The notes under the pieces: model-generated
Database searches by the model: none
Told to the model about the DNA's origin: nothing
The model's input: only the letters and a program-made list of their open reading frames with translations
Program-made: the position numbers and the translations under genes
Origin: a virus
Virus genome (UHGV): UHGV-0074812
Length of the DNA stretch: 29,386 nt
Reading direction: 5' to 3' (one strand)
In this document: positions 1 through 5,923 of the stretch, in pieces
Position numbering within the stretch: position 1 is the stretch's first letter
Layout of the letters: each line of letters opens with the position of its first letter

Positions 1-616
1 AAAAAAGAGGCTGACCCGGTATTCTCTCAAATAAAAAACGAGCATTTTTAAATCGACTGACATCTGGAAGAGTTGATACTTTAAAAGTAAGCCCTCGCCC
101 ATCTATCTTTTCACCACCTGTTGCAACAGAAAGTAATTCTGATAGAGCTGATGTATCATCATGAACACCATCACCAATAGCCCCCCAACCTCTTACATCA
201 TAACTGTCTCTCCATCTTGCTATCTGAAGTTTTGGGTATTTATTCGCTCCATCTGTGTCTTCTAATTGCTGCCGTAACTGATCAGGATCATACTTCAGCA
301 CATTAGGAAAATAGAACTGCTGCACACCGTACGCATCATAAACAGCCATAGAATGGCCCTGTACAGTAACGAATTTGGCAATCTGTCCGTTATATACCGG
401 ATATCCAGCAGCGTTAATGATGATTGGTTGAGAAACAGGAACGTGAGAGCCATCTTCGTTCTCTACATAAACCTGAATCTGGTTTTCAGGATTTACAGGG
501 TCAGTGTCAATTTTTCCTATATAAATTTTGCCATTGGCTACGGCTTTAAAAGAACGAGCCATAGTGAAGAGTTGCGAAGGCATCGATACGATCACATTGG
601 CTGTAATGTCTGTCAT
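1..616 (-). CDS. Tailspike protein, N-terminal ~205 aa only (gene continues beyond window start); P22 gp9-type head-binding domain followed by a non-P22 receptor-binding domain
   Basis: Reverse translation from ATG at 616 gives [58 protein letters not shown]..., the conserved head-binding domain of P22/Sf6/HK620 tailspikes; GGAG RBS 9 nt upstream; downstream part ([16 protein letters not shown]) looks like start of a beta-helix enzyme domain different from P22 endorhamnosidase. Confidence 0.8.
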
Positions 617-672
617 TTAATTTGCTCCAGATACAAGGAATCGCCGCAGCATGGCTACGGTGAATTTTGGGC

Positions 673-696
673 ATAAAAAAACCCAGCCGAAGCTGG
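673..696 (-). terminator. Rho-independent terminator between ant and tailspike (hairpin cccagc-cgaa-gctggg followed by U-run on minus-strand transcript)
   Basis: Perfect 6-bp stem at 681-696 with A7 run at 674-680 on plus strand (= U-run 3' of hairpin on minus strand). Confidence 0.6.
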
Positions 697-716
697 GTCG
701 TTGCGTTGGTTATCTG

Positions 717-1607
717 TCAGTAGTTATGTACTGAAGGAGGTAATTCTTTATTCTTAAGTCTCATCCATGCGGAAAGATTCGTTGGTCCGTCTGGCTCATT
801 GATATCAACATCTCGTGAGTGATTGATTAAAACGTCTCTCGCTATATCGATAATACGGGAGAACTCATAACCGCAGTCATGACATCTGCCGGAATAGTTC
901 GATTGAATTTGTTTCAGCGCCGGATACAGTTCGCGGAATAATGCCTGTGAACGGTTGGCATAATCCCATAGCCATACAAGGCTGTTTGCTTCTTTTGCAG
1001 AAAGCTCGTTTGCTTTCTTCTCTTGTTTGCCGATGAACTCGCCTTCAAGCACTACCCTGTGGATGTACTCTACGGCCAGCGGGATTTGTTCAATTGAAAG
1101 TTCATCAATGCTGTCAATACCAAAACGCTGATGAACCATATTGTATGCATCGTCATAGCGAAGTCCTTTCTTTCCTACCAGCATGTTTACTGCATCGCGT
1201 AGCGGTGTGCGTTCAGCTACTGAAGTTTTACCGCCAATAGTCTTCCTCTCTTGTGTGGCAGTAACCATTGCGTCATATGCACGGATAACCTTCAGCGCAA
1301 ATGCTGCGCTAATCCACATGGCGTAGGAGTAAACAAGCTCCTTGCACACGTAGGTTCCACCATATCGACCTTTCTTAGAAATGACGGGATTCTTATTCTG
1401 CATATCCGCAGAATTAAAAATTTCATTAATCAATTCAATAGTTTCATTTCTACGCATGAAGAAAGCTGGCTGATGTTTTTCCTCCTTTCCAGACGCTACA
1501 TGAAGGTCATTAAGCGAGTAACGCCCCTCTGAATCCATATGAATCTTGACGTCAGAAATGATGATGCTATTAGTGCAATTTACAGTTGACTTTGCTAAGC
1601 TTGACAT
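717..1607 (-). CDS. ant: Antirepressor Ant (KilA-N domain plus ANT/KilAC domain), ~296 aa
   Basis: ORF track 717..1673; likely true start ATG at 1607 (MSSLAKS..., GAGG 10 nt upstream). N-terminal [36 protein letters not shown] resembles KilA-N; position downstream of arc and upstream of tailspike matches P22 immI. Confidence 0.75.
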
Positions 1608-1619
1608 ATCAATAATACC

Positions 1620-1690
1620 TCGTAAGTTTTGTTGATACCGAAGCCCTGACTGTTCCCGCAGTTGGGGCTTCACTGTTTTTGTAAGTCACT
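1620..1690 (+). ncRNA. Candidate sar-like antisense RNA opposite the ant translation-initiation region (hypothetical)
   Basis: Plus-strand intrinsic terminator (stem gaagccc / gggcttc, 1637-1668, then ctgttttt) lies antisense to the arc-orf73-ant transcript just upstream of the ant RBS; P22 is known to make a ~68-nt sar RNA in the equivalent place. Promoter not confidently identified (weak TTGACA/TTGACT candidates at 1586-1606). Confidence 0.3.
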
Positions 1691-1891
1691 GTAGCTATAA
1701 AGCCACTGACCACTCATTTTTGATTTGATTGACTCTACTGAGTCACGGCAAGGAATGATTCCGCCTGACATCATTCTGATCTCCGTAAATTCACCACTCC
1801 TTATCGATTCAATGCCATCAATGTTAACTAAAGATTTACCTCTACCAAGTGCATTCTCATAGCCAATCTCATCAACCTCAATAAACCTCAT
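1670..1891 (-). CDS. Hypothetical 73-aa protein inserted between arc and ant
   Basis: [47 protein letters not shown]...; ATG overlaps the arc stop (ATGA at 1888-1891), GAGGGG 9 nt upstream; no family recognised. Confidence 0.5.
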
Positions 1892-2046
1892 ACCGTTATC
1901 CCCTCTCTCTTCAGGCTGTCCAACACTCGCTTGTAAATCTCAGAGTTAACAGATCGCCCGTTCTCTTCAGCTACCTTGCGCACCAAATCCAATACTTCTT
2001 TAGGCCACCGCAAATTGAACTGAGGCATTTTTCTTGCACCTTGCAT
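1888..2046 (-). CDS. arc: Arc repressor (ribbon-helix-helix), 52 aa; not in the ORF track because it is under 60 aa
   Basis: Manual reverse translation: [52 protein letters not shown], near-identical in pattern to P22 Arc (MKGMSKMPQFNLRWPREVLDLVRKVAEENGRSVNSEIYQRV...); GGAG 6 nt upstream of ATG at 2046. Confidence 0.85.
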   Translation of the reverse strand: MQGARKMPQFNLRWPKEVLDLVRKVAEENGRSVNSEIYKRVLDSLKREGITV

Positions 2047-2139
2047 ATTCAACTCCATTTCACTCATTGATAGTACCGTACTACTATTGAAAGCGTACTA
2101 CTACCGTTCTAGCATGTCAACAAATAAAAGGAGAACGAC
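2047..2139. promoter_or_regulatory. Divergent immI control region (Pant/Pmnt with Arc and Mnt operator-like palindromes)
   Basis: Intergenic region between divergent arc (-) and mnt (+); contains palindrome TAGTA-ccg-TACTA and repeated GTACTACTA motifs at about 2070-2106. Confidence 0.5.
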
Positions 2140-2382
2140 GTGGCTAGAAATGATCCACAATTCAACGTAAGAATGCCTGATGAGATAAAACAGCAACTTA
2201 CGCATATTGCTGCAACAAATCGCCGCTCGATAAACGCAGAGATTATTTCAGCTATCGAACTATGGATAAAAATTCATAAAGGGCAGCTAATACCTTCAAG
2301 TAGTCGAATCCTGACAAAGTCTGAGCAAGAGGCGTTTGATGTAGCTATTGATGTGTTAAAACGTGTAAGAGATGGAGGATAA
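2140..2382 (+). CDS. mnt: Mnt-like repressor (Arc/MetJ ribbon-helix-helix family), GTG start
   Basis: MARNDPQFNVRMPDEIKQQL... parallels P22 Mnt N-terminus (MARDDPHFNFRMP...); AAAGGAG RBS upstream of GTG at 2140; divergent from arc as in P22. Confidence 0.8.
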   Translation: MARNDPQFNVRMPDEIKQQLTHIAATNRRSINAEIISAIELWIKIHKGQLIPSSSRILTKSEQEAFDVAIDVLKRVRDGG

Positions 2383-2384
2383 CC

Positions 2385-2618
2385 ATGGAGCAACAACAAG
2401 GGTCGCCATTATCATTGATTATTATGGTGATTTTTTTCGTTTTTATCTTTTTTATACCTGCGTTAAAAATATCCAAAAAGGCCGGTTTTGACTGGAAGAT
2501 GGCTGTATGTTTAACAATCCCTGGCTTTAACGTGGTGGCGTGGCTCGCGCTTGCGTTCATGGATTGGCCAATTCACAAGTATCTACCAAAAGATGTGAAT
2601 CGTAAGGATGCAAAATGA
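2385..2618 (+). CDS. Hypothetical small membrane protein (77 aa, two predicted transmembrane helices)
   Basis: Strong GGAGG RBS 8 nt upstream of ATG; hydrophobic stretches LSLIIMVIFFVFIFFIPAL and VCLTIPGFNVVAWLALAF; immediately downstream of mnt on same strand. Confidence 0.6.
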   Translation: MEQQQGSPLSLIIMVIFFVFIFFIPALKISKKAGFDWKMAVCLTIPGFNVVAWLALAFMDWPIHKYLPKDVNRKDAK

Positions 2619-2824
2619 ATAAAAAACAGCTTATTAAGTCAAAAACGTCAAGCAAGGAAGAATTAGAGAAGGAGCTAAACTCCCTGAAATATGCTCTGTG
2701 TCTGGTTTACTCAAGACTGCCAATGGAAGATAAAAACGCCATTTACAATGAAATGATTAGCAGCCTTGATTTTAACGATAGAGACCTAGCATCCCACCTC
2801 AACAGCTTCCGCGTCCCTGAGTAA
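2615..2824 (+). CDS. Hypothetical 69-aa protein, translationally coupled to upstream membrane protein
   Basis: ATGA start/stop overlap at 2615-2618, AAGGA RBS; no recognisable family. Confidence 0.5.
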   Translation: MNKKQLIKSKTSSKEELEKELNSLKYALCLVYSRLPMEDKNAIYNEMISSLDFNDRDLASHLNSFRVPE

Positions 2825-2984
2825 TTCTGTTGCGGATTTGCTTCTTGCGGTGGTTTAAGCTGGAGAGCTTGGCTTCTGCTTCTGATATTTGCGCATCTAG
2901 ATCTTTAAGCTCAAGATCTGAAAGTCGCTGGTCAAGCAGGGTTTGATTCAACTCAATGTTGTTCAGACGTTCTTCTATGGTCAT
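2799..2984 (-). CDS. Hypothetical 61-aa coiled-coil protein
   Basis: Strong AAGGAG RBS 7 nt upstream of ATG at 2984; heptad-like sequence (LSDLELKDLDAQISEAEAKLSSL); converges on and overlaps the 3' end of the plus-strand ORF by 26 nt, so one of the two may be spurious. Confidence 0.4.
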   Translation of the reverse strand: MTIEERLNNIELNQTLLDQRLSDLELKDLDAQISEAEAKLSSLNHRKKQIRNRITQGRGSC

Positions 2985-2996
2985 GATTACTCCTTA

Positions 2997-3022
2997 TAAA
3001 AAACCCACCTGACGGTGGGTTT
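2997..3022 (-). terminator. Intrinsic terminator hairpin (cccacc-tgac-ggtggg) flanked by A-run and T-run; strongest in the minus direction
   Basis: Perfect stem 3004-3009/3014-3019; on the minus strand the hairpin is followed by UUUUUUUAUAAGGAG, i.e. terminator directly abutting the RBS of the 61-aa ORF. Confidence 0.6.
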
Positions 3023-3319
3023 CATAGTTAGTTTGGGACCGGACTTCTCCATTGAAAAATAAGAGGTTTTTTGAATTTTTCTAGCAAAAATGGATCAACA
3101 AAATCAGCCATATAATTCGTATTTAGAAAACGATCTACATTCCTCACATGCTCACCGATTCCTGCACATCAACGCCAAGTTTTGATGCAGGCGTTGCCAT
3201 TCTGGAAAGTCTCTACAAAACACAATTGTACCGCTCTCAAAGAGCGGAACTAGCATCTTTGGTACTTTTCCAATGTTAACTTTTTTCATGGTATCCTGCG
3301 TAAAACTAAGGAGGTTGGT

Positions 3320-3742
3320 GTGTTTGGTATATTAACGAGAAGCAAGATAAAAAAATTAAGGGCAGAACTCGCCGAAACACAAAAACTGGCTTCACATTTT
3401 TACAAAATGAAATACGACGCTGAAGAGCGTGCATTCGTTGAGTTATGCGATTTATCTATTCGTATGGGAGTAGAGCCAGATGTAGCGGCAAAAACTCAAC
3501 AAGGCATTGATATACTTGCAGATGTTGTTTTAAACAGGCAATATGCGTTTTATCTAAACGAGAAGGCCATTCAGATTTACTCGCAAATCTTCCTCCTGGA
3601 AAAAAGAAGAGGAACTCACGATCGAGAAGAGTGGTTAAATGAAGTTGTTAAAAAATCTGGCTGGGAAGTTGTTTCATCAGAACTACCTCTTATTTGTGCT
3701 GATTTAATCGAAGAGGCAAAAGAGCGCCTATCCGATGGCTAG
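3320..3742 (+). CDS. Hypothetical 140-aa soluble protein in accessory island (GTG start)
   Basis: GGAGG RBS 5 nt upstream of GTG at 3320; preceded by ~300 bp AT-rich non-coding DNA; opposite orientation to flanking late genes; no recognisable family. Confidence 0.65.
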   Translation: MFGILTRSKIKKLRAELAETQKLASHFYKMKYDAEERAFVELCDLSIRMGVEPDVAAKTQQGIDILADVVLNRQYAFYLNEKAIQIYSQIFLLEKRRGTHDREEWLNEVVKKSGWEVVSSELPLICADLIEEAKERLSDG

Positions 3743-3766
3743 ACGAATCCATCCGTGGATTACTAA

Positions 3767-5923
3767 TTACTCCTGTGCCATTCCGCTTAGCGATGCCACA
3801 ATTCCAGCTCTTGCTAAACGCTGGAACTCTTCGTTTCCTAGTGCCTCGCGTATTGCTTTTACGGCGGCCTTATTTGCCATAAATCTGCGTTCCGCCGCCG
3901 CTAATGCACCATCACTTGCCCCAACCTTAACTGCCTTTGTTGCCTCTTGAACAGCCTTTTCAATAGCGTAACGACCACTGCGGGATGCAGCTAACTTTTC
4001 TATCGTCCCTTTAGCTATAGATCCAGAAACAGCCCCTACAACACCGCCAACAATCCCTCCACCAGTAGTACCAACAATAGCCCCTGATGTTGAATTGCCT
4101 ATTGCATTGAGAACTGTCATGACAGCTTTTGGCAGTCCTTGCTCAAGAGAGTTAATTGCCGGTATAGAGCGCCCCGTATGCTCTACATATCGCAGTGGTC
4201 TGGTTGCTGCTCTGGCAAGGTCGCTGTATGCCCTAGCAATCCTACCCATTTCTGGCGAGTGCCTACTAATGGCAGTAATGTTCTGCGGCGTAAGGATCGA
4301 CGCTATATGGAATACGCCAGCAGACTCTGATTTACCGCCACGCACCCCTTGCGATACCGCATCTTGTAATATTGATGCAATTGCAGGAGATCGCTCAGAC
4401 TCTGGCAGCGCGCCAATAATCTGATGAAACTTTCCTGTCCCACTTTTTGATGAATTTTGCAAGGCTTTAATACCATCAGTGACTAACTGATCAGTTGCAA
4501 GGTTTCTAAACGCTGCTTCAGCCTGTTCTTGTGCTGTAAATCTTGCTTTTGACAGATCATTAGCTTTTTGCCAGTCATCAAGAAAACCGCCATTTTGAGC
4601 CATTATGCGCATATCTTCCGTTGCTGCATCACGAAGCTCCGCCATGCGCCTTGCCGTATTTGCCTCACCAGACCTTATATACTTCTGCTCAGCGTCAGAA
4701 AGTTTGCTTCGCCATGCCTTCATGGCATCAAACGTGATTCCTTTTTTACCAGTTTTAGCATAAGCAGATGCAAATTGTTTCATCTCAGGAGTTAGCGGCA
4801 TACCAGCCAAAATATCACCCTGAATTGTAGCGTTCAGGTTTGACATTCTGGCCTTTGCGTCAGGCATCGTGGAGCGGACGCTATCCCATGCTTCCTTTTC
4901 TGAGTTCTTCATTTTATCAATACTTGCTAAAACCCTTTGTTTTATGGCTGCACTTTTTTCTGATGCAGATCCAGCCTCAGCACCAAGTTCATCAAGTGCT
5001 GAGTGGAATTTCGACTGTATTTCACTAAACGCCCTAGTATGTGCATCCTGAACAATTCCTGGTTCGGATGCCAATATCCCTTCGGCTTGTGCAATTCCAC
5101 GACTTCCAGATCGCATTCCTGGTGTTAATGCGTTTATATCAATTCCAGCAGACTCAGCAGCTTTTGCTACATCTTCGGACACATTAGCGGCCTGACTGGC
5201 AATTGACTGACGCCCAGCACCTGACTTTGCCATCCTGGAAACATCATTAGCAGAATTCAGTGCTGCACCACCAAGAGCCTGTGAAACTCTTGGCGCAATA
5301 ACGCGCCCGACACCTGAAAGAACGCCTTGAGCACCAATATTGATACCACCGTTAATGGCAGCATTTTGTGCAAAGTCGCCCTCCTGATTTGCAGCATCAG
5401 CAAGAGAACCGGCAATCATGTTTCCTGCGGAACCGATGTCTCCTGCGAGCTTTGCTGGCGTTCCAGCAGCTTTTGCTGCTGTGCCAATTGGCAGGAGATA
5501 CCCACCAATTGTTTCACCGGCTTGCGCGTAAGGGTCTGTCGGTCGATCGACTGGACGATAGACATCATCCAAAACCTTGGGGCCACCAAGCCCCTGGCTG
5601 ATTGCATTAATCAGACTTGCGCCACCCTGCAATACGTCAAATGGTATGTTTACCAGACCACGACCAGCCTGTTCAGCAATTTGCCCTGCACTTTGACCAC
5701 CTGTGAGCCAATCACCAGCTTGTTGCATCAATGATGGTTCTTCTTTCTGCTGCTGAGGCGGAGGGTATGCTGCATAAAACTGATCTCTTGCTTCAGCCCA
5801 TTTGTCACCAGCCTTAGGGGCAACAACCTCATCAAAATATTGCGCTTGAGCCTGTGCTTTCTGTTCTTCAGTTAACGCCTGATACTGTGGAGAAGCGATA
5901 ACATCTTTCCATGCTTTAGCCAT
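3767..5923 (-). CDS. Ejection/internal virion protein, gp16-like (718 aa)
   Basis: Position last in the gp7-gp20-gp16 ejection-protein block; Ala/Gly/Gln-rich low-complexity sequence typical of these proteins. Confidence 0.7.

Follow-up and report, generated by a model that had tools for sequence, protein, structure and literature searches.

The immI region of phage P22, which comprises Mnt, Arc, sar and Ant, is a textbook regulatory circuit. In this study, a 73-codon gene lying between arc and ant, orf73, was analyzed in UHGV virus genome UHGV-0074812, a DNA of 29,386 nucleotides (nt) that is referred to below as the window. With a confidence slightly above even, we consider orf73 to be a real accessory gene that is coupled to arc and driven by the promoter Pant, and that encodes a divergent FlbD/SwrD-like protein, probably ring-forming and protein-binding. 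It would belong to a short mosaic cassette that a minority of P22-like (Lederbergvirus) phages and prophages have between arc and the sar terminator hairpin, and would be an optional accessory of the immI operon rather than a required part of the Mnt/Arc/sar/Ant circuit. The open reading frame (ORF) itself is already in databases as a hypothetical protein, while its link to FlbD/SwrD and the anatomy of the cassette are new in this analysis. A first-pass annotation of the window had suggested a possible new immI component; the inserted cistron is indeed genuine, but it was known to GenBank as the hypothetical protein "orf73" in the record of Salmonella phage vB_SemP_Emek (hereafter Emek; YP_006560572.1).

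Coding evidence and anatomy of the orf73 cassette

The ORF of 73 amino acids (aa) that the first-pass annotation had placed at 1670–1891 was found exactly there, on the minus strand, which had been left unstated. Its ATG overlaps the arc stop as ATGA (1888–1891) and is preceded by the G-rich ribosome-binding sequence GAGGGG (1900–1905), both as had been claimed, and its TGA stop (1672–1670) opens the conserved TGAAGCCCC at the foot of the sar hairpin; the same hairpin-foot TGA is also present in phages without orf73.

To evaluate the frame, 29 independent orf73 loci were compared, from the GenBank phages Emek and 611R6, four complete E. coli chromosomes, eight Salmonella contigs and 15 IMG/VR contigs. 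These loci represent 11 distinct nucleotide alleles, none of which carries a stop or frameshift in orf73, and each of the other five frames contains 4–14 stops across the gene. The ratio of nonsynonymous to synonymous polymorphism (pN/pS) in the orf73 frame was 0.34 among the 11 alleles, which is weak evidence given just 20 variable sites. Further, an exhaustive HMMER (phmmer) search of 1.84 billion representatives returned a single additional cluster beyond that of orf73, P0008, an 84-aa protein that is 65% identical to orf73 and has an in-frame 11-codon insertion in a loop. On the contig of this homologue (L013), the gene order is mnt, a quite different Arc, the homologue and ant; the homologue overlaps the arc stop as GTGA, ends in the same TGAAGCCCC hairpin foot, and keeps the Shine-Dalgarno sequence and the start overlap. 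Between orf73 and the L013 homologue, the synonymous and nonsynonymous divergences (dS and dN) were ~1.1 and 0.25, giving a dN/dS of 0.23, and 29 of the 63 differences fell at third codon positions. Because the frame is intact in 29 loci and a 65%-identical homologue in the same layout shows a dN/dS of 0.23, orf73 is a genuine protein-coding cistron under purifying selection. The first-pass annotation had named loss of the frame in relatives as the observation that would speak against a gene; that check was run, and the frame survives both in the 29 loci and in the L013 homologue.

Some variant database entries were also observed: P0002 (90 aa) reads through the stop into the hairpin, and P0006 and P0007 (45–48 aa) are truncated or internally deleted; these could be assembly errors or decayed copies. 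A low-complexity repeat protein returned by the same phmmer search, P0009, was judged spurious. An opposite-strand 45-aa ORF (1725–1862, plus strand) was likewise rejected, as the antisense frames contain 4–8 stops across the orf73 span in every allele.

We regard it as barely credible that orf73 is untranslated and that the 227 nt carrying it are non-coding filler, or else form an RNA element within the ant leader, with an incidental open frame. The support for translation comes from the sequence level, variation among the close alleles is low (the 20 variable sites noted above, with their weak pN/pS), and one antisense frame gives a similar ratio, 0.32. However, that antisense frame has four stops in every allele, whereas the orf73 frame stays open at 65% aa identity and a dS of ~1.1, with a dN/dS of 0.23 and an insertion of exactly 11 codons. 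The conserved start overlap and Shine-Dalgarno sequence, and a significant protein-level similarity to PF06289 proteins described below, also speak for a protein, and sar is all that Rfam matches in the orf73 region.

The locus has the make-up of a P22-type immI, with the Mnt and Arc repressors, divergent overlapping promoters, sar and Ant located between gene 16 and the tailspike gene. On the minus strand, arc (from 2046 or 2067 to 1888) is followed by orf73 (1891 to 1670), a 62-nt spacer, ant (1607 to 717) and the tailspike gene (from 617), whose product has a P22-type N-terminus; this mnt/arc/orf73/ant/tailspike order is that of P22 apart from orf73. The features are as follows.

1670..1891, minus strand: orf73, 73 aa and a TGA stop, from the ORF list; match to PHROG 11805 with an E value of 2.8e-53
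1888..1891, minus strand: ATGA overlap of the orf73 start and arc stop, by direct sequence reading (TCAT on the plus strand)
1900..1905, minus strand: orf73 Shine-Dalgarno sequence GAGGGG within the arc codons Arg-Glu-Gly, 9–14 nt 5′ of the ATG, by sequence reading
1673..1899, minus strand: 227-nt segment in place of 18 nt in epsilon34 and N7, comprising the last three arc codons and orf73, by BLAST and alignment
1888..2046, minus strand: arc, 52 aa; Pfam Arc, 91.6 bits; arc in the Emek annotation; a second in-frame ATG at 2067
1609..1674, plus strand: homologue of the sar antisense RNA; Rfam RF00262, 61.7 bits against a gathering score of 43, E value 1.6e-11
1640–1671, with a T-run at 1675–1680: sar terminator hairpin, from the terminator scan; the T-run is the reverse complement of the last orf73 codons
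717..1607, minus strand: ant, 296 aa; Pfam P22_AR_C, 94 bits, and KilA-N, 70 bits; ant in the Emek annotation; GAGGT Shine-Dalgarno sequence upstream
2092..2120, minus strand: candidate Pant, TTGACA-17 nt-TACGCT, by sequence reading and its position relative to P22 and epsilon34; overlaps Pmnt face-to-face
2087..2115, plus strand: candidate Pmnt, TTGAAA-17 nt-TAGCAT, from the promoter scan
2140..2382, plus strand: mnt, 80 aa, divergent Arc-fold repressor; Pfam Arc domain, 47.3 bits; mnt in the Emek annotation

The epsilon34 arc gene extends to 15539 and its ant gene begins at 15608, with sar in between, and N7 is alike. When the window was compared by BLAST with epsilon34 (L004) and N7 (L003), the homology fell into blocks at 1900–2297/2055 and 1637–1672, and the gap between the blocks was 227 nt in the window vs. 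18 nt in epsilon34 and N7. Relative to these two phages, only the last three arc codons and orf73 are new; orf73 has no counterpart in epsilon34, N7 or HZ41, despite homologous arc genes and identical hairpins there. The claim of an extra gene compared with P22 thus holds for these close P22-type relatives. The cassette common to all orf73 loci is slightly longer, consisting of the last ~20 arc codons, orf73 and the sar hairpin.

The immI block around orf73 has a source different from the remainder of the window. Positions 1550–2140 are 100% identical to Emek, and the Emek match as a whole spans only 278–3025 (95.3% overall), with sharp mosaic joints at ~278 and ~3025; it contains the tailspike head-binding domain, ant, orf73, arc, mnt, three small ORFs and a terminator. 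The remainder resembles the E. coli P22-like Lederbergvirus phages 611R6, HK620 and CUS-3. Based on this limited Emek match and the 611R6/HK620/CUS-3-like rest, the immI block is itself a mosaic module, and the possibility that the window is phage Emek itself was rejected.

Relationship of the orf73 protein to FlbD/SwrD

PHROGs places orf73 in phrog_11805. In Pfam, the sole match to orf73 was FlbD (PF06289) at a sub-threshold 14.6 bits (E value 0.025; the gathering threshold is 24.7 bits), and FlbD was likewise the only match for all six orf73 family members tested, the divergent one included (E values 0.007–0.025). When orf73 was aligned by hhalign with 40 bacterial FlbD sequences, its residues 19–58 matched FlbD residues 11–50 in the same register with 30% identity (P 0.006). 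Further, a scan of IMG/VR with the FlbD profile identified ~70-aa phage proteins on two contigs, L033 and L035, which at 30.4 and 30.6 bits lie above the Pfam cut-off. orf73 is 39% identical to these phage proteins over 41 aa (pairwise E value 1e-6); its Smith-Waterman scores with them were 63–69 compared with 23.6 ± 4.5 for shuffled sequences, none of 5000 shuffles reaching them, and those of P0008 were 55–56. Consistently, the only relatives that the profile search returned from outside the orf73 family were PF06289-annotated proteins.

In the joint alignment, N23, I27, E28, T36 and I38 of orf73 were invariant across orf73, phage FlbD and bacterial FlbD proteins, and correspond to N15, I19, E20, T28 and I30 of SwrD. 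The stretch N23-I-D-G-I27-E28, which aligns with SwrD N15, I19 and E20, is invariant in the orf73 family. Crystal structures reported in a 2026 bioRxiv preprint show that the SwrD hexameric ring is held by Asn15-xxx-Ile19 (Ile/Leu19) and Glu20, and that Thr28 is part of a conserved surface loop, Pro26-Asp27-Thr28 (PMC13232269). At the loop position orf73 has S-G-E-F-T, in which the Thr (T36) alone is retained and Pro26-Asp27 are not kept, and R31 occupies the position of SwrD Glu23. The loop between strands b1 and b2 is long in orf73 (10 aa, and 21 in P0008), and its aromatic C-terminal tail, SGQW-YSY-DL, does not vary even in P0008. Judged from these alignments, orf73 is a divergent relative of the ~70-aa FlbD/SwrD (PF06289) beta-proteins, a relationship that the first-pass annotation had not foreseen and that emerged from the profile searches.

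Other searches gave little. A tblastn search of GenBank phages with bacterial FlbD returned one unannotated record only, and a family-profile scan of representative genomes, one per species, found no orf73 relative owing to the rarity of the family. Among PDB sequences, a profile search produced a weak partial FAIM1 match only (E value 0.06), which was dismissed; NCBIfam and PADLOC gave no orf73 match and thus no link to a known defence system, and a literature search found no study of orf73.

One consequence of the relationship could be that orf73 acts on the host flagellar motor or motility regulon and changes host motility during infection, as bacterial FlbD/SwrD proteins raise stator power or alter sigD expression. 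We give this only a small chance. Besides the sequence relation to PF06289 proteins itself, it is favored by the related phrog_8458, which PHROGs files as 'flagellar protein' under host takeover, and by the finding that SwrD loss impairs swarming and perturbs sigD/flgM (PMC13232269). However, PF06289 was not found in Escherichia, so that no native partner is known in the host, and the binding of SwrD to MotA itself could not be shown (PMC13232269). In orf73, moreover, the conserved surface P-D-T loop and E23 of SwrD are missing, the tail is aromatic rather than charged and disordered, and every locus has the gene between the arc and ant genes of a P22-like phage or prophage, not in a flagellar operon. 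P22-like phages, further, use O-antigen and not flagella.

AlphaFold produced one confident model of orf73, with a predicted local distance difference test (pLDDT) of 86.5. It has strands at residues 2–8, 19–23, 27–32, 36–40 and 45–48, a short helical turn at 24–26 and a helix at 52–60, and the order of these elements is that reported for SwrD. A Foldseek search of BFVD with the model found many 60–80-aa phage proteins at template modeling (TM) scores of 0.6–0.8, several of them named 'Flagellar and swarming motility protein'.

Whether such a protein would bind DNA or protein can be assessed by comparison with RemA, whose DNA-binding arginines, given as R50/R51 (PMC8481266) or R51/R53 (PMC13232269), are carried on a helical insertion between b3 and b4. 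At this site orf73 has a three-residue turn only (S32–E34), and its calculated isoelectric point (pI) is 4.99, with nine K+R vs. 11 D+E. Since orf73 is acidic and lacks the arginine-bearing insertion, protein binding is the likelier mode. That orf73 is instead a small RemA/LytTR-type DNA-binding regulator, for example at Pant, Pmnt, Psar or a host promoter, has a smaller chance than a motility function: besides the net acidic charge and the missing insertion, which RemA needs for DNA binding, its similarity to RemA does not exceed chance (Smith-Waterman score 26 vs. 22.7 ± 4.1 for shuffles; hhalign P 0.03), neither a Pfam LytTR match nor a strong AgrA/ComE fold match was obtained, and SwrD, the closer relative, is also without the RemA DNA-binding elements (PMC13232269). 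By homology to SwrD and RemA, orf73 probably forms a homo-oligomeric ring, which would act via protein-protein contacts, perhaps through the SGQW-YSY-DL tail, rather than on DNA.

Expression, distribution and role in immI

In the promoter and terminator scan, the interval between arc and ant contained neither a promoter nor a terminator on the minus strand, and the Pant transcript should thus include orf73. Pant itself was missing from the scan output, its −10 being too weak for the consensus scan. Given the ATGA or GTGA overlap and the Shine-Dalgarno sequence inside arc, translational coupling of the orf73 start to the arc stop is the natural reading; the Arc tail that holds the Shine-Dalgarno sequence, ...DSLKREG(I/V)(T/A)(V/A), is present at every orf73 locus whatever the Arc type. 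The co-expression with arc and ant claimed in the first-pass annotation agrees with these signals, which make co-transcription from Pant the natural interpretation. orf73 would then be expressed from Pant along with Arc and Ant in the burst that directly follows infection, and translated by the same ribosomes as they complete arc. Mnt would silence it in the lysogen, and Arc would do so later. Read-through from the late operon, considered as a second expression route, was downgraded in light of PMC8022706, and late expression is not claimed.

orf73 lies wholly outside the stretch of ant mRNA that is paired by sar (1609–1674). The ant leader, with which sar pairs, is downstream of the orf73 body, and the antisense restraint on ant should therefore not extend to orf73. 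The insertion bears on sar as well: the terminator tail of the sar strand is ACTGTTTTTG in the window, the complement of the last orf73 codons (Q-K-Q-stop), vs. AACTTTACGC in epsilon34, so that orf73 supplies a better T-run than the poorer epsilon34 tail. All orf73 alleles seen retain AAA as the penultimate codon.

Some peculiarities of the surrounding control elements and of Ant were observed. At the position of epsilon34 Psar (1573–1601, plus strand), the −10 is TAAGCT in the window vs. TATACT in epsilon34 and 611R6, and the −35 is not clear; Psar may be weaker or different with this KilA-N-type ant. The operator region at 2073–2105 contains a direct repeat of TAGTAGTACG (minus-strand reading) with 7-nt spacing, and an obvious P22-type palindromic arc operator was not seen. 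The Ant at 717–1607 is a KilA-N and P22_AR_C fusion that is flagged 'Defective?' in the Emek record, while the Ant proteins of other orf73 loci are of the P22_AR_N and P22_AR_C type, with 292–309 aa.

As to its distribution, full-length orf73 was present in 51 of 5426 complete E. coli genomes, that is, ~8% of the 660 genomes that match part of the 361-nt query, and within the GenBank phage collection in Emek and 611R6 only. At least four Arc types and at least five Ant types were seen together with orf73. orf73 is therefore not a constant immI component, as it is absent from epsilon34, N7 and HZ41 and present in just 51 of the 660 partially matching E. coli genomes. The sar hairpin is annotated in CUS-3 as a 'boundary sequence' ('bsq2 boundary sequence'), and high mosaicism is known for the gene 16–gene 9 stretch of P22-like phages, the "ant moron" region (Villafane et al., 2008; PMC2629481). 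The pattern is consistent with an optional cistron that is gained and lost by recombination at two conserved boundaries, namely the arc 3′ end and the hairpin. Absence from phages that share the flanks, rarity in E. coli, the many Arc and Ant partners, and relatives in unrelated contexts together favor an optional accessory. The first-pass annotation had offered two interpretations, an immI component or a moron riding on Pant; of these the inserted cistron stands and the evidence leans toward an optional accessory, but orf73 is not a classical moron, having neither promoter nor terminator of its own.

Alternatively, orf73 could be an additional part dedicated to the immI switch, such as a ring protein whose binding to Arc or Ant tunes the size or duration of the antirepressor burst; this is unlikely in our estimate, although its chance is appreciable. 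The position of orf73 is always exactly between arc and ant, with all the Arc and Ant types mentioned above and also in the divergent L013 lineage, and its coupling to arc would give a roughly fixed ratio to Arc. The orf73 protein is acidic while Arc is strongly basic (pI ~10), and the orf73 stop falls within the foot of the sar/ant-leader hairpin, just as, in phages without orf73, the arc stop lies 4 nt before it. However, epsilon34 and N7 have the mnt-arc-sar-ant set without orf73, as does P22 itself, and it is carried by only ~8% of the partially matching E. coli genomes. Recombination at two conserved boundary sequences, the 3′ end of arc and the hairpin ('bsq2' of CUS-3), could also account for the fixed position, and the related phage FlbD-like genes are not beside Arc or Ant genes. 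A more specific version, in which a SwrD-like ring was recruited as a new immI layer, made at a fixed ratio with Arc, exempt from sar, and binding Arc, Ant or C2 through its aromatic tail to set the duration or strength of the burst, is doubtful; if it were true, it would provide the first defined molecular partner for any FlbD/SwrD member.

Several observations weigh against our preferred interpretation, an optional accessory gene for a FlbD/SwrD-like protein. The FlbD score is below the curated Pfam threshold (14.6 vs. 24.7 bits), and the hhalign probability for FlbD is low, 6%. The remaining four AlphaFold models of orf73 had pLDDT values of 67, 51, 44 and 42, the P0008 model reached 41, so that the predicted fold comes from one model in five, and Foldseek gave no significant match to the orf73 model in PDB. 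Ring formation and the protein-binding mode are proposed by analogy only, and for SwrD itself the predicted partners MotA and CheD did not validate (PMC13232269). Pant, itself a predicted promoter, is probably the only expression route. Equally, a functional tie to immI could be the reason why orf73 keeps strictly to its place between arc and ant across many Arc and Ant types, and 'optional accessory' would then be too weak a term.

Neighboring cargo and comparison with known systems

Other small genes are found around this immI. Two ORFs with overlapping or abutting stops and starts follow mnt on the plus strand (2385–2824), one of 77 aa that is hydrophobic and probably a membrane protein, and one of 69 aa; they are orf77 and orf69 of Emek and have no Pfam or PADLOC match. 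They would be expressed from Pmnt in the lysogen, which makes them candidate lysogenic-conversion or exclusion genes. On the minus strand (2799–2984), a 61-aa coiled-coil-like ORF (orf61 of Emek) has weak PADLOC matches only (PbeC, E value 7e-4, and JetC), probably due to composition; the strong hairpin-plus-T terminator beside it (2996–3023) also gave weak Rfam scores for Phe_leader and sroH, which were taken as chance. Upstream of mnt, other orf73-carrying Salmonella prophages have a HicA toxin with a DUF1902 (HicB-like) partner (L005, L008 and L011, 2947–3483), and other orf73-carrying E. coli prophages a PIN-domain protein with its partner (L029–L031, 1262–2520). This differing cargo illustrates the variability of the region. 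Elsewhere, the contig L033, which carries one of the phage FlbD-like genes, has a minor capsid protein 2 homologue split by an intein (2109–4205; Pfam Intein_splicing).

With a conserved extra cistron coupled into it, immI offers a natural experiment on the uptake of additional parts by regulatory circuits. Through orf73, moreover, a very small protein family of enterobacterial prophages, with two clusters at 50% identity among the 1.84 billion representatives, becomes connected with the FlbD/SwrD fold. As small FlbD-like proteins are common in phages, orf73 in a tractable phage-host pair, that is, E. coli or Salmonella with a P22-like phage, could be a convenient entry to the partners of these ring proteins. 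If orf73 is a plain accessory without phenotype, the finding is an ordinary one.

Compared with the immI of P22 and epsilon34, the locus has all the canonical parts (Mnt, Pmnt/Pant, Arc, sar and Ant) in the same order between the gene 16 homologue and the tailspike gene, but differs in the extra cistron between arc and the sar hairpin, in its KilA-N/P22_AR_C Ant, and in a sar T-run that derives from orf73 codons. Like morons and the "ant moron" region, orf73 is present in some phages and absent from relatives in which its two neighbors adjoin (227 vs. 18 nt), and it lies in a highly mosaic region (PMC2629481). Unlike a moron, it has no promoter or terminator of its own and is embedded in and coupled to an existing operon, its start overlapping the arc stop.

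FlbD/SwrD (YlzI) are flagellar and swarming proteins of Bacillota, Actinomycetota and Spirochaetota that form hexameric rings (PMC13232269). orf73 resembles them in its length of ~70 aa, in the order of b1-b2, 3-10 turn, b3-b5 and alpha-helix as predicted in its one confident model, in the N-xxx-I-E interface motif with T36, I38 and G43, in being acidic to neutral, and in having no DNA-binding elements. It differs in the longer b1-b2 loop, in R for E23, in the lost P-D-T surface loop, in an invariant aromatic tail where FlbD/SwrD proteins have a variable, charged and disordered one, and in its place in a phage immI operon of Enterobacteria, which have no SwrD, rather than in a flagellar operon. 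RemA (DUF370; PDB 7BM2/7BME), which activates biofilm formation in Bacillus and Geobacillus, is an octameric ring that wraps DNA; in contrast, orf73 is acidic, lacks the b3-b4 helical insertion and its arginines, and has no significant sequence similarity to it. The closest outside relatives of orf73 are the phage PF06289 proteins (PHROG 8458, 'flagellar protein'; those on L033 and L035, and P0130–P0157), which are 30–41% identical to it, have the same length and share the core NxDxIESI...(S/T)EIR(L/M)..G. Unlike orf73, they score above the Pfam threshold, and their genes, as seen on IMG/VR and Logan contigs, lie between DUF5131 or Prim-Pol and terminase genes, on unrelated, non-enterobacterial-looking phage contigs and not beside Arc or Ant.

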